Positions 7,939-62,868 of a DNA stretch of 64,000 nt are shown here, one piece after another. Below the pieces are notes generated by a model. That model saw only the letters and a program-made list of their open reading frames with translations, was not told the origin of the DNA and did not search any database. The DNA is taken from positions 239 through 64,238 of IMG/VR virus record IMGVR_UViG_3300032018_000005; one strand, given 5' to 3'. Both the position numbers and the translations under genes were made by a program. The DNA comes from a virus (taxonomy: Duplodnaviria; Caudoviricetes). Numbering within the stretch: the first letter of the stretch is position 1; each line of letters opens with the position of its first letter.

Positions 7939-8116
7939 TATGGGAAATTCGGATGTCATATTTCATTTGACATTTAAATAAGATTCTATATAATGTGTTG
8001 TAGTAAATGTGAAGTTTAATTTTGATATGGAATTTGGATGTCATATTTCATTTGACATTTAAATAAGATTCTATATAATGTGTTGTAGTAAATGTGAAGT
8101 TTAATTTTGATATGGA
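7938..8116 (+). repeat. Tandem 85-bp duplication of an early promoter (TTGACA-N16-TATAAT twice)
   Basis: 7951-8031 is repeated at 8036-8116. Confidence 0.9.
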
Positions 8117-12584: not shown

Positions 12585-12765
12585 TTCGTATTGGTCAATT
12601 TGACTGCTACGGTGACAATAAAGTCGCACGCAATAGGCGACTTGGGAGAAATCCCATTGGCCCTACAGAAAATGACTAGTAAAATCGAGAGGTCTGGCAT
12701 ATTATTGTCAGTTGGTCATGGGAGTGGGCAAGCTGCACGATCTTTAGTCTCGTGCAGTAGTTGAC
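12585..12765 (+). ncRNA. Unassigned structured RNA of about 180 nt, copy 1
   Basis: Multiple helices; near-identical copy at 58741-58923. Confidence 0.7.
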
Positions 12766-25047: not shown

Positions 25048-26019
25048 ATGAAAACTTTTAAAGGCTTTAATCAAAATCTCTCTTGTAGGGATTTTCAATT
25101 CAATATAGGCGAGACATACACTCATACAGGAAAAGTAGAAGCTTGCGCTTCGGGGTTTCATGCTTGTGTAAATCCTCTTGATGTATTTACATATTATTCA
25201 CCTGATACTTCGCGCTTCTGTTTGACTGAATCTAGTGGTGATATTGAAACACACAAAGATGATTCGAAAATCGCATCATCGATATTAACTGTTGTTAAAG
25301 AATTATCATTGGATGAATTATGTAATGCAGGGGCCGATTATATCCTGAATAATGTAACTAATACTAATACTGAAACTAATACCGGTTACCGATCTGCTGC
25401 TATTAATACAGGGGATAAATCTGCTGCTACTAATACAGGTCGCCAATCTGTTGCTACTAATACCGGGGATTATTCTGCTGTTACTAATACCGGTTACCAA
25501 TCGGCTGCTACTAATACTGGGGCTTATTCTGCTGCTACTAATACTGGAGATCAATCTACTGCTACTAATACAGGTTATCAATCTGTTGCTACTAATACAG
25601 GAGATCATTCGGCTGCTACTAATACCGGTGGCCGATCTGTTGCTACTAATACAGGTTACCGATCTGCTGTTACTAATACTGGTTACCGATCTGTTGCTAC
25701 TAATACCGGGGATTATTCTGCTGTTACTAATACTGGTTACCGATCTGTTGCTACTAATACCGGGGATTATTCTGCTGCTACTAATACCGGTTACGAATCG
25801 ACTTCTAGTGTCGAAGGAGTAAATTCGGTTGCAATGTCGACTGGTAAGAATGGCAAAGCTAAAGCTTCTCTAGGGTCAGCAATAGTGCTTTGTTATTATA
25901 ATGATGATATGGTCTTGTTGGATTTGAAAACAGGGGTTGTAGGGAGGAATGGGATTCTCCCAGATATTTGGTATACTTTGGACAAAAACGGTAATTTTAC
26001 AGAGGCTGAAAATGTTTAA
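25048..26019 (+). CDS. Repeat protein copy 1: KGFNxxLxCRxFQF...GFHAC N-domain plus 16 x 9-aa SAATNTGxx repeats (DUF7666-like)
   Basis: 27-bp in-frame repeats at 25378-25797; paralog at 52123. Confidence 0.85.
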   Translation: MKTFKGFNQNLSCRDFQFNIGETYTHTGKVEACASGFHACVNPLDVFTYYSPDTSRFCLTESSGDIETHKDDSKIASSILTVVKELSLDELCNAGADYILNNVTNTNTETNTGYRSAAINTGDKSAATNTGRQSVATNTGDYSAVTNTGYQSAATNTGAYSAATNTGDQSTATNTGYQSVATNTGDHSAATNTGGRSVATNTGYRSAVTNTGYRSVATNTGDYSAVTNTGYRSVATNTGDYSAATNTGYESTSSVEGVNSVAMSTGKNGKAKASLGSAIVLCYYNDDMVLLDLKTGVVGRNGILPDIWYTLDKNGNFTEAENV

Positions 26020-39796: not shown

Positions 39797-39937
39797 ATGA
39801 TTGACCAATACGATTACGACGATTACTGCGACAAGGATCCAATTGAACATATTAGTGATGACGATTTTGGTGATTTTTATGTTGAGCAAGAAGATTTGCG
39901 CTCACGGGCGGCTAACGTTCAAATTGAGCTTGAATGA
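39797..39937 (+). CDS. 46-aa acidic ORF ending inside an attC-like site
   Basis: AGGAG upstream; MIDQYDYDDYCDK...ANVQIELE. Confidence 0.5.
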   Translation: MIDQYDYDDYCDKDPIEHISDDDFGDFYVEQEDLRSRAANVQIELE

Positions 39938-39947
39938 TAGGTTGTGC
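39910..39947 (+). mobile_element. Collapsed attC-like site
   Basis: GGCTAAC gttcaa ATTGAG / CTTGAAT gatag GTTGTGC: R'', L'', L' with extra G, R'. Confidence 0.65.
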
Positions 39948-39966
39948 GGCACGGACTACGGAGGGA

Positions 39967-40314
39967 ATGATGACAGAATTAGACTATTGGGAAGAATGTT
40001 TATCGGACGGTGCTTACGAATGTGAGCTTGTGATTTCAAGCGAACAGCTAACCGCGCTTGCAGAAAGCGTAAAGATAGGGCATGAACATTACGGGATGGC
40101 GTTTTACTCTCCACCTTCCAGTGACCGTTTTAAAGATATTGAACGCGAATGGAAAACGAAATTAGCGGCACTCCAAGGTGAACTTGATACTTATCAAAGA
40201 AACGCTGAGATTGCCATTAAGAAAGCATTAGGGCAGCGTAGCAATGATTCTGTTTCGATTGGCGCTTACGGAGAAGTGTTTTTGAATGGAGGTAGGACTG
40301 AGCAAATTCAGTGA
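39967..40314 (+). CDS. Hypothetical protein in a gene-cassette-like unit
   Basis: GGAGG RBS; GC-richer codons; flanked by attC-like sites. Confidence 0.75.
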   Translation: MMTELDYWEECLSDGAYECELVISSEQLTALAESVKIGHEHYGMAFYSPPSSDRFKDIEREWKTKLAALQGELDTYQRNAEIAIKKALGQRSNDSVSIGAYGEVFLNGGRTEQIQ

Positions 40315-40315
40315 C

Positions 40316-40404
40316 TCACAACGTGGAGTTGAGCGGGCGCATAAATGATTGTTGAGAAAACATATCACGCTTCAGGCGCGTCCTGCTTGAGCGAAAGGTT
40401 ATAA
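40316..40404 (+). mobile_element. Full-length attC-like site (89 bp)
   Basis: TCACAAC gtgga GTTGAG cgggcgc...gcgcgtcctg CTTGAGC gaaag GTTATAA directly after a stop codon. Confidence 0.8.
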
Positions 40405-40409
40405 CACAC

Positions 40410-40672
40410 ATGAGTTACACACTGACAGAAACAGGCAAGACGCTGACCGAAACGCGAGAAGGCGTAACGATGCCAGCTGATTATAGCTTTGCGAACGTGA
40501 ACGAGTTTGTGCATGGGTGGGGGACACGCATTACGAAGATTTGCAGTATCTGTGCCTCGGCATGGTGACCCACATTGAGAAGATGCAACGTGGGGAATTT
40601 ATATGCCAGAAATGTGGGCTGAGAAAAGACAGCGTGCATGATGGTGATTTTTATGTTTATCAAGAAGATTGA
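40410..40672 (+). pseudogene. Frameshifted cassette-like ORF
   Basis: First frame stops at 40568; a second frame continues HYEDLQYLCLG...GEFICQKCGLRKD to 40672. Confidence 0.5.
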
Positions 40673-52122: not shown

Positions 52123-53340
52123 ATGAAAACTTTTAAAGGCTTTAATCGAAATCTCTCTTGTAGGGATTTTCAATTCAATATCGGCGAGACATTCACTCAT
52201 ACAGGAAATGTAGAAGCTTGCGCTTCTGGGTTTCATGCTTGCGAAAATCCTCTCGATATATTTACATATTATCCCCCTGCTAATTCGCGCTTCTGTTTGA
52301 CTGAATCTAGTGGCGATATTGAAACGCACAAAGATGATTCGAAAATCGCATCATCGATATTGGATATTGTTAAAGAATTATCATTGGCCGAATTGTGTAA
52401 TTATGGTGCAGAGTATATCCTGAATAATGTAATTGATACAGAAACTAATACCGGTTACCGATCTGCTGCTACTAATACAGGTCTCCGATCTGCTGCTACT
52501 AATACCGGGGATTATTCTGTTGCTACTAATACAGGGAATAATTCTGCTGCTACTAATACAGGTTATCAATCTGTTGCTACTAATACCGGTAGCCGATCTG
52601 CTGCTACTAATACAGGTTATCAATCTGTTGCTACTAATACAGGGTATTATTCTGCTGCTACTAATACCGGGAATTATTCTGCTGCTACTAATACCGGAGA
52701 TCATTCTGCTGCTACTAATACCGGTGGCCGATCTGCTGCTACTAATACCGGGAATAATTCGGCTGCTACTAATACAGGGTATTATTCTGCTGCTACTAAT
52801 ACCGGGGATAATTCTGCTGCTACTAATACCGGGGATAATTCTGCTGCTACTAATACAGGTAGCCGATCTGCTGCTACTAATACAGGGTATTTTTCTGCTG
52901 CTACTAATACCGGTATCCGATCTGCTGCTACTAATACAGGGGAGTATTCTGCTGCTACTAATACAGGGTATTTTTCTGCTGCTACTAATACAGGGGAGTA
53001 TTCTGCTGCTACTAATACAGGTCTCCGATCTGCTGCTACTAATACCGGGGCTTATTCTGCTGCTGCTAATACCGGGAATAAATCGGCTGCTACTAATACC
53101 GGGGCTTATTCTGTTGCTGCTAATACCGGGGATTATTCTGCTGCATCAGTAAAAGGTAAACATTCTGTAGCTATTGCTACTGGTAAGAATGGCAAAGCTA
53201 AAGCTGCTTTAGGTAGCGCAATAGTGCTTTGTTTCTATCAGGGAGATAATGTTATAGTTAAATCGGCAACGGCTGGTGTTGATATATGTGCTGATGTTTG
53301 GTATACACTCAATGATGCAGGCGATATAATCGAAGCGTAA
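52123..53340 (+). CDS. Repeat protein copy 2: same N-domain plus 26 x 9-aa SAATNTGxx repeats
   Basis: 27-bp repeats at 52447-53136; own early promoter at 52061-52088 and GAGGAG RBS. Confidence 0.88.
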   Translation: MKTFKGFNRNLSCRDFQFNIGETFTHTGNVEACASGFHACENPLDIFTYYPPANSRFCLTESSGDIETHKDDSKIASSILDIVKELSLAELCNYGAEYILNNVIDTETNTGYRSAATNTGLRSAATNTGDYSVATNTGNNSAATNTGYQSVATNTGSRSAATNTGYQSVATNTGYYSAATNTGNYSAATNTGDHSAATNTGGRSAATNTGNNSAATNTGYYSAATNTGDNSAATNTGDNSAATNTGSRSAATNTGYFSAATNTGIRSAATNTGEYSAATNTGYFSAATNTGEYSAATNTGLRSAATNTGAYSAAANTGNKSAATNTGAYSVAANTGDYSAASVKGKHSVAIATGKNGKAKAALGSAIVLCFYQGDNVIVKSATAGVDICADVWYTLNDAGDIIEA

Positions 53341-57866: not shown

Positions 57867-58616
57867 ATGGCAACTCGTAAGGTCATAGAAAAGAATTCAA
57901 CTGAGCAACAAAATAGGATGACTAAGCCAACAGAAAGTCTAAAATTAAAATTAGATAATCTAAAAACATTTGACCCATTGACAGAGAACCAAAGAAAGTT
58001 TTTTGAAGCATATAAGTTAGGTGATTATTTTATTGCATTACATGGTGTGGCTGGTACTGGTAAAAGCTTCTGTGCATTATACAAAGCACTTGAAGAGGTA
58101 ATGGACAGAGGAAATCCTTTCAATAAAGTAATAGTAGTAAGATCAGCAGTCCAGTCAAGAGATATGGGACACATGCCAGGTGACGTTGACGAAAAAATGA
58201 GCTTATATGAACTTCCGTATGTTCAAATATGCGACACATTATTTGGACGCAAGGATGCTTGGCAAAGACTGAAAGAACAACATATGGTAGAATTTGTTTC
58301 AACCTCTTTCATTCGCGGATTATCATTCGACAATGCTATTATCGTAGTGGATGAGTATCAGAACTTGACATACGCAGAATTATCCACGGTCATGACGAGA
58401 GTAGGATATATGTCTAAAATTATGTTCTGTGGTGATTACAGACAAACAGATTTAGATAAAAAGAAAAACGATTTATCAGGTATCAGACAATTTATGCATG
58501 TGGCTGATAGAATGCAATCATTCACAAGGATAGAATTTGGAGTGGAAGACATTGTTCGCAGTAGCCTCGTAAAAGATTTTATCTTAGCGGAAATCGAATA
58601 TAACGATTCAATTTAA
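57867..58616 (+). CDS. phoH: PhoH-family ATPase
   Basis: GVAGTGKS, FIRGLSF, VDEYQN, GDYRQTD, DIVRS. Confidence 0.95.
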   Translation: MATRKVIEKNSTEQQNRMTKPTESLKLKLDNLKTFDPLTENQRKFFEAYKLGDYFIALHGVAGTGKSFCALYKALEEVMDRGNPFNKVIVVRSAVQSRDMGHMPGDVDEKMSLYELPYVQICDTLFGRKDAWQRLKEQHMVEFVSTSFIRGLSFDNAIIVVDEYQNLTYAELSTVMTRVGYMSKIMFCGDYRQTDLDKKKNDLSGIRQFMHVADRMQSFTRIEFGVEDIVRSSLVKDFILAEIEYNDSI

Positions 58617-58992
58617 GGAGAAGTGAGAATGAGCAAAGCAAAAGATTATCCTTGTTCGGCTATGTATTTAGCTATTGTTTCAGTTGATGCCTCTCAGTAG
58701 AACAAACAAAGTAACCAAAAGAATTACATAAATAATATCATTCGTATTGGTCAATTTGACTGCTACGGAGAAGAAATAAAGTCGCATGCAATAGGCGACT
58801 TGGGAGAAATCCCATTGGCCCTACAGAAAATGACTAATAAAATCGAGAGGTCTGGCATATTATTGTCAGTTGGTCATGGGAGTGGGCAAGCTGCACGATC
58901 TTTAGTCGCGTGCAGTAGTTGACCGTTGCGGAAATCGAATATAACGATTCAATTTAAGGAGAAGTGAGAATGAGCAAAGCAAAAGATTATCC
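58587..58992. repeat. 65-bp direct repeat (58587-58651, 58928-58992) flanking ncRNA copy 2
   Basis: gcggaaatcgaatataacg...gcaaaagattatcc occurs twice. Confidence 0.92.
58741..58934 (+). ncRNA. Unassigned structured RNA, copy 2
   Basis: Near-identical to 12585-12765; CATAAATA late-promoter-like motif just upstream. Confidence 0.7.
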
Positions 58993-59330
58993 ATCATCGC
59001 AACCATTTAATGTAAATCCTCGTCGTAATTTGACGAAGCATAATAGTTGGTGGGCGTCTCCACCATACAATAATAATAAAAAACAAACAAAGGCATAATA
59101 TGCTTGTTATAATTGGCATACAAATAGCATTGTGTATTTGTTGTTTTATTGCTGGTATTTTTCTACTTTACAACGAAAAAGCATAGAGGAATAATATGAA
59201 AACCAAAGACCTTATGTCGATGTTAATTATCGCATGTATCAATCGTGATAAGGTGGCAGAGAAAGAGATTTGGTTGGAAATATTGAAGAAATCGTTAAAA
59301 CGTAAAAAGACTTATGCGGTAAAATAAAGA

Positions 59331-59604
59331 ATTGTCGTAATCCCACGAATGTAAGGCTTGTAAGACGCGGGTTCGATTCCCGCCGGCTCCACCAAAAGCA
59401 TTTTAGTTTTCTGTATAAAATAATTATAATGCTTTTGATGGGGCCGACCAGGCTTCGATTGCGAGAGATAGAATAGTGGCGGCAGGTGAGTTGACTGACC
59501 TAATCAGCAAAAAAACGTAAATGCAAACGATACTGCATGGGCTCTTCAAGCGTAAGCTAAAGACCTGAGGTTCTTCTAGTCGTCCTTATCACCCAATCGA
59601 CTAG
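59331..59604 (+). ncRNA. ssrA: Circularly permuted (two-piece) tmRNA; tag ANDTAWALQA
   Basis: 3' end gacgcgggttcgattcccgccggctccacca (to 59394) precedes 5' end ggggccga (59440); intervening inverted repeat; tag ORF at 59523-59555. Confidence 0.9.
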
Positions 59605-59788
59605 ATTTACAATATCGGAGTCCGAGGTTAAGCCGATTAATAAATTCCTCGGGCCAATTTATGCCAAGTTGACGTGTGAAGATTATACTGGTTCTAGTCA
59701 AATACTTGGTGCCAAATTAAATGCGTGGGTTTTAGTACCAACAGGAGTTCAACTCCAGCTATCACTACCGTTATATAAGGGAGTAATT

Positions 59789-60382
59789 ATGGAGAAGATT
59801 CTAATATGTGATAGAGGTGGTATGCCTCATCATTGGGCATCATGGGAAGATGCTGTAGTTCTCAAATATAAAAATCTCCTATCGTATGAACAAGGAGAGC
59901 CATCAGTGTTCCGTGGTGGCACTTCTCGCATAACTGGCAATCGTACAGCGATTGATATTGGGAAAATTGTATTCTTGAAAGAGACATTAAAATACGATTG
60001 TAGAATACCACCATTGACTAACCAAAATCTATTTGCTAGAGATAGAAACATATGTGCATATTGTGGCAGACATTTCAGAGAAGATAAATTGAGTAGAGAC
60101 CATATTATTCCTGTTTCATGTAACGGAGAAAATACGTGGATGAATTGCGTTACCGCATGTAGACCATGTAATCACATCAAAGCAAATTTACCAATCGGGA
60201 AAGCCAAAGATGAAAATGGAGATAAGATGGTATTATTATATGTCCCATATGTACCATCACATGCTGAACGGCTTATTCTGCAAAGTAGACATCTGCTAGC
60301 AGATCAAATGGAATACCTTAGAGCATTTTTGCCTGACCATAGTAGAATATTAACTGGTGATATTATACTAGGACTGCAATAA
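59789..60382 (+). CDS. HNH endonuclease (tRNA-array-associated type)
   Basis: LFARDRNICAYCG...DHIIP...GENTWMNCVTACRPCNHIK. Confidence 0.9.
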   Translation: MEKILICDRGGMPHHWASWEDAVVLKYKNLLSYEQGEPSVFRGGTSRITGNRTAIDIGKIVFLKETLKYDCRIPPLTNQNLFARDRNICAYCGRHFREDKLSRDHIIPVSCNGENTWMNCVTACRPCNHIKANLPIGKAKDENGDKMVLLYVPYVPSHAERLILQSRHLLADQMEYLRAFLPDHSRILTGDIILGLQ

Positions 60383-60507
60383 TTCAACCCTGTAAGTCTT
60401 AGGATTTACAGGGTTTTTCTTTTCCTGGAAAATATAGTTGACATTAAATCCTAAATCATTATAATAGCTGATATCGAGGCACTAATGACTTAGGAGAATA
60501 AAATGAT
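60351..60507 (+). repeat. Terminator + early promoter + RBS repeat, copy 1
   Basis: aaccctgtaagtcttaggatttacagggttttt...ttgaca-N16-tataat...ttaggagaa; repeated at 61849-62000. Confidence 0.9.
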
Positions 60508-60727
60508 TGTTGCAGATTTTATCGAATGGCTTAACGCCCAAGATCAAGGCGCGACAGTTGAAGTGCTTGTTGGGGAACGGTCGAGAGGTTATGATGGAGA
60601 CACATACCATAAGGTTGACTTTGATCCAGAAAAGCATATTGACTATATAGACATGCGCGGAAATCCGTTTGGTGTAGGAAAGCCATACGAGAACGACAGG
60701 ACGCTTTTTCTTGGCTATTCGGATTGA
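60503..60727 (+). CDS. Cassette-like hypothetical protein
   Basis: RBS; followed by TCATAAC. Confidence 0.7.
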   Translation: MIVADFIEWLNAQDQGATVEVLVGERSRGYDGDTYHKVDFDPEKHIDYIDMRGNPFGVGKPYENDRTLFLGYSD

Positions 60728-60728
60728 C

Positions 60729-60806
60729 TCATAACGTAGAAGTGAAACGGAGAACGAAATGAACATAACTGAACCAAACAATACCGCTTCGACTGTAGGA
60801 TTAGGC
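60729..60806 (+). mobile_element. attC-like site containing the RBS and ATG of the next gene
   Basis: TCATAAC gtaga AGTGAA ... TTCGACT gtagg ATTAGGC. Confidence 0.65.
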
Positions 60807-61061
60807 GTTGAACCTGATGCATGGGCTACAAAAATAATGTGTATAGGGCCTGAGTATGGCAAGACTTTTTATGGTAAATTACCAATGCAAAGTCTAAACC
60901 CATTGTTTTACTCGCATGAAAGGCTCTACTCTGAAAAGGCTGTGATTGGCTTAATGAAGGCTGCTTACTCTGATGGATACGCGGAAAGAGAGCAGGAATT
61001 GAGAGCGCAGCATAACGTGCCGCTCGAACGCAGGGTTAGTGGTTTAACAACAAGGAGATGA
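60759..61061 (+). CDS. Cassette-like hypothetical protein
   Basis: GGAG RBS; both ends run through attC-like sequence. Confidence 0.65.
   Translation: MNITEPNNTASTVGLGVEPDAWATKIMCIGPEYGKTFYGKLPMQSLNPLFYSHERLYSEKAVIGLMKAAYSDGYAEREQELRAQHNVPLERRVSGLTTRR
61010..61041 (+). mobile_element. Collapsed attC-like site
   Basis: GCATAAC gtg ccgCTCGAAC gcagg GTTAGTG. Confidence 0.7.
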
Positions 61062-61064
61062 ACT

Positions 61065-61268
61065 ATGGGATATAAAACGCCAGAAGAGGCAATTGAGGCC
61101 GAGCAGCCGGGGCCAGAATGCTATATTGATTTTGATGGGAATAACTGCGATGACTGCGTTGGATGGGATGGGCGGTCGAGACGTTGCGAATGCGGAAATC
61201 GCAGAGTTTCATGGACGTCATCAAAAAATGATGACGGAACTTTTGAAGCAATCGCGGAGGCATGGTGA
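61065..61268 (+). CDS. Cys-rich cassette-like protein
   Basis: AGGAG RBS; CDDC.GWDG.SRRCECGNRRV. Confidence 0.7.
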   Translation: MGYKTPEEAIEAEQPGPECYIDFDGNNCDDCVGWDGRSRRCECGNRRVSWTSSKNDDGTFEAIAEAW

Positions 61269-61269
61269 C

Positions 61270-61305
61270 ACCTAACGTGTAATTGCCTCAAATGCAGGGT
61301 TGTGC
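61270..61305 (+). mobile_element. Collapsed attC-like site
   Basis: ACCTAAC gtgtaattg cctcaaat gcagg GTTGTGC. Confidence 0.7.
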
Positions 61306-61327
61306 GTCAATTTTACGGAGATATGGC

Positions 61328-61633
61328 ATGGATAAAAGAATACTAACTTGCGTTTATTGTGGGCACGAATACCCGCAAGATACCCAGGCTCACGGCAGCG
61401 AAGTGCTGACAGATCACATTAAGATTTGTGAACAGCACCCGATGCGAAAAGCAGAGAGCGATATTGTATTGCTGCGGTCGGCGCTGGCTGGGCTGGTCGG
61501 CGCTGATACTGAGCAGGAATTGCAAGAGATGGCAGCTGCGGTGCGGGTAATACCCGACCCGGACGGCAACGCGACAGTTGCTCTCAATGCGATTCACGCG
61601 CTACTTTCGACCATGACGCACAACGTGATATAG
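61328..61633 (+). CDS. Cassette-like zinc-finger protein (CxxC...H...C..HP)
   Basis: GGAG RBS; ends in GCACAAC R'' site. Confidence 0.75.
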   Translation: MDKRILTCVYCGHEYPQDTQAHGSEVLTDHIKICEQHPMRKAESDIVLLRSALAGLVGADTEQELQEMAAAVRVIPDPDGNATVALNAIHALLSTMTHNVI

Positions 61634-61848
61634 GCAGCCTAACTAAAAATAACGATGACGCGTGTTGAGGCAAATGGAATCGGAGCGCAGAGAAATGAAT
61701 ACATAACAGGCACTGCGCCATGCAGACGAAAGCGCAGAAGGACTTTACATACTGCTGGATGCATTGAACACGGCGTATCCTGTGCCCCTAACGTAAACGT
61801 TCAAATTGAGCAAGGTTAACCACAGAGAAGGGTAACTACCCTCTAATG

Positions 61849-62000
61849 TAACTGGTGATATTATATTGCAATAATTCAACCCTGTAAGTCTTAGGATTTA
61901 CAGGGTTTTTCTTTTCCTGGAAAATATAGTTGACATTAAATCCTAAATCATTATAATAGCGGACATCGAGGCACTAATTATTTAGGAGAAATCAAATGAT
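61849..62000 (+). repeat. Terminator + early promoter + RBS repeat, copy 2
   Basis: Matches 60351-60507 including the last codons of the HNH gene. Confidence 0.9.
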
Positions 62001-62868
62001 CGTATTAAACAAAAAGACAAACGACTTCGAATATCATATAAATGGTAAAATGATTCGTAGATCAAAGAATCGTTCTAAGTTGGAACAAACTGTCATTGGT
62101 CTCGGATACAAATTAGATCAAGTAACAGCAACACACAATATCGGAGAAGTCATTGTTAAGAAGTCCGAATTTACAGTTTCTGAACGGTTTGAGTTCATTA
62201 CACAATTCACAAAATTAGCTGCTAAAGGAGTTATCCCAGGATTAGTAATCACTGGTGATGGTGGCTTGGGAAAAACTCATACTGTATTGGAGACAATGCA
62301 TTCTTTGAAATTGAAAGAGGACACTATTGGTACTGTTGATGGTGATTTCGTATTCATCAAGGGATATTCTACTCCACGCAATTTGTATACTAGTCTTTAC
62401 CATAACAACGGCAAAATTATCATATTCGATGATTGTGATTCTAGTTTTAAAGACCCAATTGGTGCTAATATTTTCAAAGCTGCATTGGATTCATATGCGA
62501 AGCGTATAATTAGTTGGGGCGCCGAATCTAAAGATGATTCTGTACCAAGTAGGTTTGAATTCACAGGCAAAGTTATCTTTATTAGCAATCTTACATTGGA
62601 CAAGTTCCCACAAGCGATTCTGAGCAGGTCAATGCTGGTCGATTTGACATTGAATCAAGAAGAAAAACTTGATAGGATTGAAGATGTATTCATGAACGAA
62701 ACACATTATGAGAAAGAAGACAAGATGGAAGTTCTTGCTTTCATTAAGAAAAATGTAGCAAAAGCCAAGGATTTAAACATCCGTAGCGCATTCAACATTA
62801 TCAAGATAAAGATGGCAATTGGTGAAGGTTGGGAAAAGCCAGCACTTTACAACTTTATGGTTAATTGA
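61996..62868 (+). CDS. P-loop (AAA-like) ATPase
   Basis: GDGGLGKT, IFDDCD, IFISN, SR. Confidence 0.85.
   Translation: MIVLNKKTNDFEYHINGKMIRRSKNRSKLEQTVIGLGYKLDQVTATHNIGEVIVKKSEFTVSERFEFITQFTKLAAKGVIPGLVITGDGGLGKTHTVLETMHSLKLKEDTIGTVDGDFVFIKGYSTPRNLYTSLYHNNGKIIIFDDCDSSFKDPIGANIFKAALDSYAKRIISWGAESKDDSVPSRFEFTGKVIFISNLTLDKFPQAILSRSMLVDLTLNQEEKLDRIEDVFMNETHYEKEDKMEVLAFIKKNVAKAKDLNIRSAFNIIKIKMAIGEGWEKPALYNFMVN

Follow-up and report, generated by a model that had tools for sequence, protein, structure and literature searches.

Genes and Composition of the Block

Block B is a run of small genes at positions 60503-61847 of a 64,000-nt stretch of viral DNA (positions 239 to 64,238 of the IMG/VR record IMGVR_UViG_3300032018_000005), below called the window. 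These genes are separated by sequences resembling attC, the recombination sites of integron gene cassettes. The window covers nearly all of a 64,238-nt contig of an uncultured virus, and the contig was estimated to represent 39% of the genome. The original prediction described the block as an integron-cassette-like array in a lytic phage and as the best candidate for an undescribed system of gene capture, working with an integron integrase (IntI) borrowed from the host or with another unlinked recombinase.

The phage has a distant T4-like gene set, including a gp43-type DNA polymerase, a gp41-type helicase, UvsX, RIIA, an SbcC-like gp46, NrdA and a ligase; PhoH, an nrdC.10-like AAA protein and 10 tRNA genes are also encoded in the window. 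A lytic lifestyle is plausible and fits this gene set. As had been predicted, the block is visibly richer in G+C (0.473 in 60503-61847 against 0.355 window-wide). The G+C content of third codon positions (GC3) is 0.57 in gene B4 against 0.25-0.34 in the neighbouring genes; in genes B1-B3 it amounts to 0.40-0.43, well under the values of the donor-type arrays considered below.

Seven viral loci encode relatives of the AAA protein with 61-62% identity, and the block genes were found in none of the seven. The genes upstream of the AAA gene in these loci are different ones, the gene content between the HNH endonuclease gene and the AAA gene differs, and a homologue of the HNH gene is present in four of the seven, about 2.8 kb upstream of the AAA gene. 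No match to the DNA of block B was obtained in 50,697 phage records, in searches for both near and distant similarity, or in Escherichia coli genomes in a search for distant similarity. Because of its G+C content, the GC3 shift of B4 and the absence of its genes from the related loci, block B is considered foreign to the phage. The features of the block, of its surroundings and of array A, a second GC-rich block of the window, are collected in Table 1.

Table 1. Features of block B, its flanks and array A (window coordinates; bits and E-values refer to the attC covariance model, z to DNA folding against shuffles).
Feature	Position	Strand	Description
HNH endonuclease gene	59789-60382	+	Pfam HNH_5 4.4e-12, HNH 2.5e-11; PHROG HNH endonuclease families
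Left native repeat	60351-60507	+	HNH 3' end, terminator 60386-60415, early promoter 60438-60465, ribosome-binding site (RBS), ATGAT
B1	60503-60727	+	74 aa; no family; start codon coincides with the left junction; ATGATyGT common to the AAA gene start
Junction 1	60729-60758	+	R''-like TCATAAC and L''-like stretch, fused to the B2 leader ACGGAG; no R' box before the next start codon; 9.3 bits, E 2.8 (60729-60806); no fold
B2	60759-61061	+	100 aa; conserved core at about residues 15-85
Junction 2	61010-61041	+	32-nt attC remnant, GCATAAC ... GTTAGTG, within the B2 3' end; 10.2 bits, E 1.7, 33 model positions deleted; z +1.1
B3	61065-61268	+	67 aa, cysteine-rich; small family with 11 homologues besides itself; weak DUF5854 match below cut-off
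Junction 3	61270-61305	+	36-nt attC remnant, ACCTAAC ... CAAATGCAGG GTTGTGC; 14.4 bits, E 0.15; z +0.8
B4 cassette	61299-61624	+	bounded by R' and R'' boxes of its own
B4 ORF	61328-61633	+	101 aa; zinc-finger-like N-terminus, then helices
Junction 4	61618-61670	+	R'' GCACAAC, second R'' GCCTAAC (61637), R' GTTGAGG (61664); z +0.1
B5	61655-61819	+	doubtful 54-aa ORF or remnant of a truncated cassette; no family
Junction 5	61786-61821	+	attC 5' half (CCCTAAC GTAAACGTTCAAATTGAGC) nearly abutting GTTAACC
Right native repeat	61849-62000	+	HNH 3' end with 6-nt deletion, terminator 61878-61907, promoter 61930-61957, RBS, ATGAT
Native AAA-type gene	61996-62868	+	nrdC.10-like, phrog_1250; downstream of the right promoter copy
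Array A, collapsed attC	39910-39947	+	same attC subtype; 25.9 bits, E 2e-4
Array A, full-length attC	40316-40404	+	89 nt; 21.2 bits, E 0.003; best-preserved site in the window

Four of the open reading frames (ORFs) of the block are convincing and a fifth one, B5, is doubtful; all are located on the plus strand. Neither these ORFs nor A0-A3 of array A belong to a family above threshold in Pfam, PHROGs and NCBIfam, and only two weak sub-threshold matches were found, with A0 covered in Pfam only and with B1-B5, not A0-A3, covered in PHROGs. Homologues of B1 are known from four viral loci, and in one of them (L065) same-strand attC sites are located about 670 nt upstream of the gene. Relatives of B2 were recovered only by a full HMMER search, which gave 90 representative clusters at E<=0.001, and pattern scans of viral or metagenome contigs gave none; a Pfam family was absent from all ten B2 relatives scanned. 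No relative of B5 was present in any fetched locus.

The B4 family is the most informative and includes 384 homologous proteins, with 34 viral loci and 12 genome loci. For an AlphaFold 2 (AF2) model of B4 (pLDDT 85), no structure in PDB or BFVD matched significantly, and a profile search of PDB gave a single match with E 0.91. With respect to function, nothing is claimed for this protein past the predicted zinc-finger-like N-terminus.

Junction Motifs

In classical integrons, which consist of IntI, attI and attC, the R'' box has the form RYYYAAC and the R' box the form GTTRRRY, and a cassette carries its own R' at the 5' end. In block B there are six heptamers ending in AAC, namely TCATAAC (60729), GCATAAC (61010), ACCTAAC (61270), GCACAAC (61618), GCCTAAC (61637) and CCCTAAC (61786), and four heptamers starting with GTT, namely GTTAGTG (61035), GTTGTGC (61299), GTTGAGG (61664) and GTTAACC (61815). 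Only ACCTAAC and GCCTAAC fit RYYYAAC exactly. Strings resembling L boxes are agtgaa (60741), ttcgact (60788) and ctcgaac (61023), and one 16-mer occurs twice in the window, at 39914 and 61796. All motifs and coordinates listed in the original prediction are present. Its statement that a GTT-starting site follows each unit holds for the four positions given above but not for the first junction (60729-60758), which is devoid of such a site.

The sequences GTTGTGCGTCA (61299-61309) and TGACGCACAAC (61614-61624), at the two ends of the B4 cassette, are complementary in 11 of 11 positions. This complement, too, had been noticed earlier, and it is indeed present, but 101 of 1000 shuffled versions of the block also contain some inverted repeat of 11 nt, and its significance by itself was rejected. 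When each R'' box is compared with the preceding R' box, B4 shows 7/7 complementary positions (11/11 when extended) and A1 of array A shows 6/7. The pattern CAYAACGTR reaches four matches in 8 of 100 shuffles. A recurring CAYAACGTG was also considered as a promoter or processing site of the donor; this was rejected, as the motif corresponds to the R'' box with the first bases of attC.

A leader motif, ACGGAG(A/G), is common to cassettes of this attC type and is located 5-9 nt before the start codon and approximately 10-20 nt past R'. It occurs in the window at 39958, 60747 and 61315, and also in the leaders of loci L021, L014 and L022. The 16-nt leader AACGGAGAACGAAATG is identical in B2 and in an unrelated cassette of L021.

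Genuine Cassette Arrays of the Same Type

The attC covariance model used here was home-built from 18 aligned genuine sites; it is distinct from the model of IntegronFinder, and its E-values are rough. The consensus structure of the 18 sites contains 15 pairs, 11 of them with compensatory changes. In 467 kb of fetched loci, 51 sites were found with this model, all on the gene strand, with scores of 23-63 bits and lengths of 54-123 nt. Matches were present in 11 of the 34 viral loci of B4, in 2 of the 17 loci of A1, in one of the four loci of B1 (not adjacent to the gene) and in none of the seven relatives of this phage, as well as in 5 of the 12 genome loci of the B4 family.

In many loci the gene of the B4 family is preceded by GTTGGGC or GTTGTGC and a conserved leader ending with ACGGAG and is followed by an RYYYAAC box and an imperfect palindrome of 55-75 nt. 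Of 43 cassettes in these donor-type arrays, 32 have an R'' box that is a perfect complement of the preceding R', against 6 in which it complements its own R'. Such pairing is the footprint of G↓TT crossovers made by an integron integrase. Judging by it, by the compensatory changes, by the restriction of the sites to the gene strand and by the integrase gene of L074 described below, the donor arrays are genuine products of IntI.

Two examples deserve description. The first is G005, a complete phage of 36.9 kb (CheckV 100%) with terminase, portal, tail fibre and primase genes; its array (L069:5179-9279) comprises 11 attC sites in 4.1 kb in a single orientation, directly downstream of a divergent promoter region, and an integron integrase was not found on the G005 record. 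Larger ORFs in this array resemble DNA methyltransferases by eye only. The second is a betaproteobacterial contig, L074, in which 125 nt separate a cassette of the B4 family from an integron integrase gene (443.6 bits at a cut-off of 265). The cassette, in the region L074:1040-2521, has the R'/R'' pair GTTAAAT/ATTTAAC, complementary in 7/7 positions, and is located upstream of the integrase gene in the same orientation; no match to the attC model was obtained in L074. A cassette placed upstream of the integrase and co-oriented with it is unusual among classical integrons. The original prediction had asked whether homologues of the block genes occur in bacterial integrons or only in phages, and for the B4 family both L074 and G005 can be named.

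The B4 leader, from GTTGTGC to ATG, and the terminal sequence ...ACGCACAACG align base for base with cassettes that precede genuine attC sites. Because of this alignment of the leader and terminal box, and because of the 7/7 (11/11 extended) complement of R' and R'', it is concluded that B4 is a former mobile cassette and that the junctions of block B are attC remnants. The earlier reading of the B4 unit as a cassette that circularises through its own attC agrees with this.

Search of the Window and Collapse of the Sites

The full 64 kb were scanned with the attC model on both strands and without filters. The five best matches in the window all fall within the two GC-rich blocks, all on the plus strand, and the best match outside both blocks reaches 9.4 bits. 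The control consisted of array-free, GC-rich DNA of prophage-like type (85,416 bases); the best score there was 13.0 bits, and three matches had at least 10 bits. Three matches of at least 10 bits were found in the 1.34 kb of block B versus about 0.05 expected by arithmetic from this control. Under the home-built model, two or more close significant attC sites, as counted for an integron array, are present in array A and absent from block B. A match at 60529-60594 was also considered as a cassette boundary and rejected, as the B1 homologue in L065 has no such match.

None of the five junctions of block B forms a hairpin more stable than shuffled sequences in DNA folding (z from +0.1 to +1.1). 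Genuine sites do fold, with z -3.5 for L059:3347-3406 and z -2.4 for L021:4291-4360, and the array A site (40313-40409) has z -1.6.

The shared 16-mer shows what happened to the sites. It was found in 17 viral loci, and in 15 of them it is a chance match in unrelated sequence; in the other two, L099 and L103, it makes up the 5' half of attC sites that are intact and score 47.9 and 53.4 bits, respectively. By alignment, the array A site 39910-39947 is the intact L099 attC minus 23 central nucleotides. Compared with the same intact site, junction 5 retains the 5' half and the R' box and junction 3 retains the 3' half. In array A, the full-length site 40316-40404 aligns with the attC that follows the A1 homologue in L059. 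In our opinion, these alignments are direct evidence for the collapse of attC sites. Together with the enrichment of model matches, they bear out the attC architecture and the internally deleted sites proposed in the original prediction, and its link of the block to array A through the 16-mer means that both carry the same attC subtype. The idea that the two arrays had been contiguous in the donor was rejected, as what they share is no more than the 5' half of a single attC subtype, intact examples of which occur in L099 and L103.

Flanking Repeats and Assembly

Block B is located between two direct copies of a native module (157 and 152 nt overall, with a gap-free part of 124 nt at 97% identity). 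Both promoters have the form TTGACA-16-TATAAT, with 12/12 consensus positions, and both terminators consist of a stem of 13 pairs and a T run. The last approximately 32 nt of the HNH gene fall inside the left copy. Within 3 kb the promoter module occurs four times (60438, 61930, 62870 and 63184), the last two copies being limited to the promoter-leader part. On the left, the foreign DNA begins with the start codon of B1; on the right, it adjoins TAACTGGTGAT of the HNH gene end.

Two other inserts in the window are similarly built. Array A interrupts a small native ORF within its 3' end and is flanked by a 28-nt duplication (26/28 identical; 39869-39896 and 40643-40670), which rebuilds the last residues of this ORF (DFYVEQED / DFYVYQED). 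A third insert of about 245 nt (58659-58902) is flanked by a 97-nt direct repeat of 86% identity, within 58562-58999, containing the end of the PhoH gene, an RBS and first codons, so that the same signature of an insert with a duplicated junction is observed as in blocks A and B. Part of this insert, 58775-58923, recurs at 12617-12765 with 98% identity.

The ends of blocks A and B are never at the G↓TT crossover. Because these ends lie in duplicated native sequence, away from G↓TT, the structure points to insertion of block B by homologous or by illegitimate, microhomology-mediated recombination and not by IntI.

Flanking repeats are a classic site of mis-assembly, so that an assembly chimera has to be considered, as does a chance resemblance of attC sites to ordinary gene-end and leader motifs of a foreign operon. 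For the latter speak the shortness of the single motifs and the frequencies of CAYAACGTR and of 11-nt inverted repeats in the shuffles given above. In our view, both possibilities are very improbable. The flanks are homologous to genuine attC cassettes, the model matches are enriched in comparison with controls, and a contig made by a second assembler crosses both junctions. This contig, independently assembled from run X1, spans 60439-61896 at a depth of 23.6, the flanks having depths of 21.9 and 24, which argues against a chimera. Run X1 is the sole public run with this sequence and probably represents the source sample; it is available as contigs only, in which rare excised forms would be invisible. 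Recombinant joints at the block were not found in the X1 contigs, which drop rare variants.

Another X1 contig, 79 nt long and with a depth of 3.8, matches the B4 leader (window 61287-61320) with three differences, and the 45 nt upstream of the match are GC-rich, palindrome-like and different from the window. This contig possibly stems from another genome of the sample, one carrying a cassette of the B4 type with its attC intact.

Origin and Present State of the Block

Summarizing these data, it may be concluded that block B (about 60508-61848) is probably a horizontally acquired and decayed fragment of an integron-type cassette array, held between copies of a native module, and not an active capture system.

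Several points weigh against this conclusion. Every site of block B is weak individually (15.4, 14.4, 10.2 and 9.3 bits; E 0.09-2.8), and the highest of these scores belongs to 60529-60594, which lies wholly within the coding sequence of B1 and is probably due to chance, so such scores can mislead. Junctions 61618-61670 and 61786-61821 were not detected by the attC model. For B3 and B5 the offset complement is just 5/7, as expected from the purine/pyrimidine (R/Y) constraint of the boxes. A cassette context was demonstrated only for B4 and for A1 of array A and is marginal for B1. In the other 23 of the 34 B4 loci there is no attC at E<=0.01, and in the three of them inspected (L017, L018 and L023) the gene belongs to tightly packed prophage-like operons without attC-like flanks; because of these 23 loci, an ordinary phage could be the donor of some genes. 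The mechanism of insertion, the timing of the collapse and the expression of the block are all inferred. Finally, the contig represents only 39% of the genome, so there is room for a recombinase elsewhere.

The last point bears on the idea of the original prediction that the block is an operating platform in which a host or unlinked IntI still adds, excises and shuffles cassettes. The integrase which had been reported missing from the window was also not found on the whole 64,238-nt contig, as no match to tyrosine recombinases (PF00589) was obtained at E<=1. Besides the incompleteness of the contig, activity would be consistent with the full-length 89-nt site and the well-scoring 38-nt site of array A, with the perfect R'/R'' pair of B4 and with the recombination by IntI1 of five out of six phage-borne attC sites tested in a published study (PMC9892861). 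Against these stand the unfolded junctions of block B, which measure only 26-53 nt from the R'' to the R' box at lengths of 54-123 nt in genuine sites and score 9-15 bits versus 23-63 bits, as well as the ends of the block in duplicated native sequence instead of G↓TT, the missing recombinase on the contig and the depth of the block, equal to that of the flanks in a single run. An active platform is therefore improbable, and this part of the earlier interpretation finds no support at this locus.

The history of a decayed fragment may be imagined as follows. An integron integrase elsewhere would have first assembled the cassettes; arrays of this attC type that lack an integrase occur in small GC-rich phages and on contigs of uncultured bacteria. 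A fragment of such an array presumably entered the early variable region of an AT-rich T4-like phage without use of the attC crossover point; its left joint would be the start codon with ATGATyGT and its right joint would lie within the 3' end of the HNH gene. The result would be a block left between the 152-157-nt copies of gene end, terminator, consensus early promoter and RBS. Two routes would fit this structure, namely a two-ended illegitimate join to sister genomes and the integration of a circle by way of the native module.

The promoter at 60438 is predicted to drive B1-B4 as an early operon ending at the 61878 terminator, and the right copy of the promoter would keep the AAA gene on. 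Deletion of the GC-rich palindromic cores of attC would leave no folded single-stranded substrate for integron integrases, and the cassettes would thereby be fixed with respect to IntI. This loss may have resulted from the instability of long hairpins in a phage with an SbcCD-like nuclease. Movement of the block would now probably require homologous recombination of its two flanking repeats (97% identity), in a manner similar to the mini-circles discussed below. As for the function, our best guess, suggested by the early-operon position and by the company of such arrays in phage early regions, is an accessory role in host takeover or counter-defence.

Comparison with Known Systems

Clusters of attC sites lacking an integrase (CALINs) were described in temperate and virulent phages by Qi, Rajabal, Ghaly, Tetu and Gillings (2023; PMC9892861), so that the system can no longer be called undescribed, as the original prediction had suggested. 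According to the text of that paper, phage CALINs share with block B the attC-type cassettes without a nearby integron integrase and the co-directional small genes of unknown function; the donor-type arrays considered here, for example, that of G005 with its 11 sites, are exactly of that kind. Block B differs in having only remnants of 26-53 nt, which neither fold nor pass the model, and in its position, enclosed in the duplicated promoter module native to a T4-like phage. The words 'T4-like' and 'degenerate' are absent from the main text of PMC9892861, the supplementary phage tables lying outside the scope of this comparison.

The bracket around block B resembles, by its sequence features, the promoter-early stem-loop (PeSL) modules of T4-type phages (Arbiol et al., 2010, PMC2839356; Comeau et al., 2014, PMC4122927), by which, as was proposed, orphan genes are inserted and excised via mini-circles (PMC2839356). 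As described there, PeSLs have in common with the bracket an early promoter of sigma-70 consensus next to a stem-loop, placed between an upstream stop codon and a downstream RBS and start codon; they are repeats of about 100 nt in a variable region of a T4-type genome, upstream of orphan genes, and direct copies of them flank an accessory insert. Unlike the published modules, the bracket has as its stem-loop a classical terminator, placed before the -35 box; its flanking copies take in a part of the upstream gene, and its cargo is a multi-gene fragment of integron origin. No report on attC remnants in T4-like phages or on their link with PeSL modules was found in a full-text literature search.

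This likeness raises an explanation in which the block arrived already collapsed from another T4-like phage via PeSL-like repeats, the integron link being ancient and indirect. We consider it unlikely, if somewhat less so than an active platform. The four promoter modules within 3 kb, the 97% identity of the flanking copies and the documented PeSL-mediated shuffling and mini-circles of phages RB49 and phi1 (PMC2839356) are in its favour, and the GC3 of B1-B3 (below donor-type arrays) suggests a long stay in AT-rich genomes. On the other side, the repeat takes in a part of the local HNH end, as would be expected of a local duplication rather than of a generic PeSL, and other T4-like contigs with the block genes were found neither among the seven relatives nor, by DNA match, among the phage records searched.

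The preferred interpretation of block B as a decayed cassette fragment, acquired by this phage, can also be set against classical integron arrays. The offset complement of B4 and the presence of one ORF per unit in a common orientation are the same, and R''- and R'-like boxes occur, two of the six R''-like ones in the exact form. In contrast to those arrays, block B has neither IntI nor attI, its hairpin cores are lost, a predicted phage early promoter takes the place of Pc, and its boundaries are not at the crossover point.

Other Features of the Window

Several features unrelated to the arrays were also observed. A permuted tmRNA-like gene with the tag ANDTAWALQA (ARAGORN) is located at 59302-59646, between the PhoH region and the HNH gene. 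Two genes contain long tandem arrays of a 27-nt repeat, corresponding to 9-residue protein repeats (25242-25919 and 52338-53200), and upstream of each array there is a 300-nt stretch with 90% identity (25037 / 52112). The RIIA-like gene is immediately preceded by a tandem duplication (7946-8115; 99% identity) of an 85-nt unit that bears a promoter, and close to the start of the window two copies of a 99-nt unit lie 131 nt apart (1296-1525).

Conclusions

Integrons, attC sites and integrase-less attC clusters in phages are known already. What is new is a decayed cassette fragment adopted by a T4-like phage within its own promoter-terminator bracket. As a single case, it is of modest significance, as attC clusters in virulent phages have been published and the sites considered here are very probably dead. 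At the same time, the finding links integron cassettes with T4-type promoter-terminator modules, two gene-shuffling systems usually treated apart, and intact and collapsed attC sites can be compared side by side, which shows how recombination sites decay once a cassette is beyond the reach of an integrase.

A broader and rather speculative possibility is that the integron cassette pool is connected with the orphan-gene pool of T4-type phages and repeatedly feeds the PeSL-like brackets of large virulent phages. Cassettes assembled by IntI would move from hosts and small CALIN-carrying phages into terminator-promoter brackets, where loss of the attC palindromes, possibly via the phage SbcCD-like gp46/47 nuclease, would fix them; the homologous recombination of the phage would then become the shuffling engine, with early counter-defence or takeover genes as cargo. 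Arrays A and B, belonging to one attC subtype, would represent two independent insertion events. If this is general, a part of the orphan early genes in large virulent phages could be traceable to the integron cassette pool, and attC remnants could serve as markers of gene flow among temperate phages, their hosts and virulent phages.

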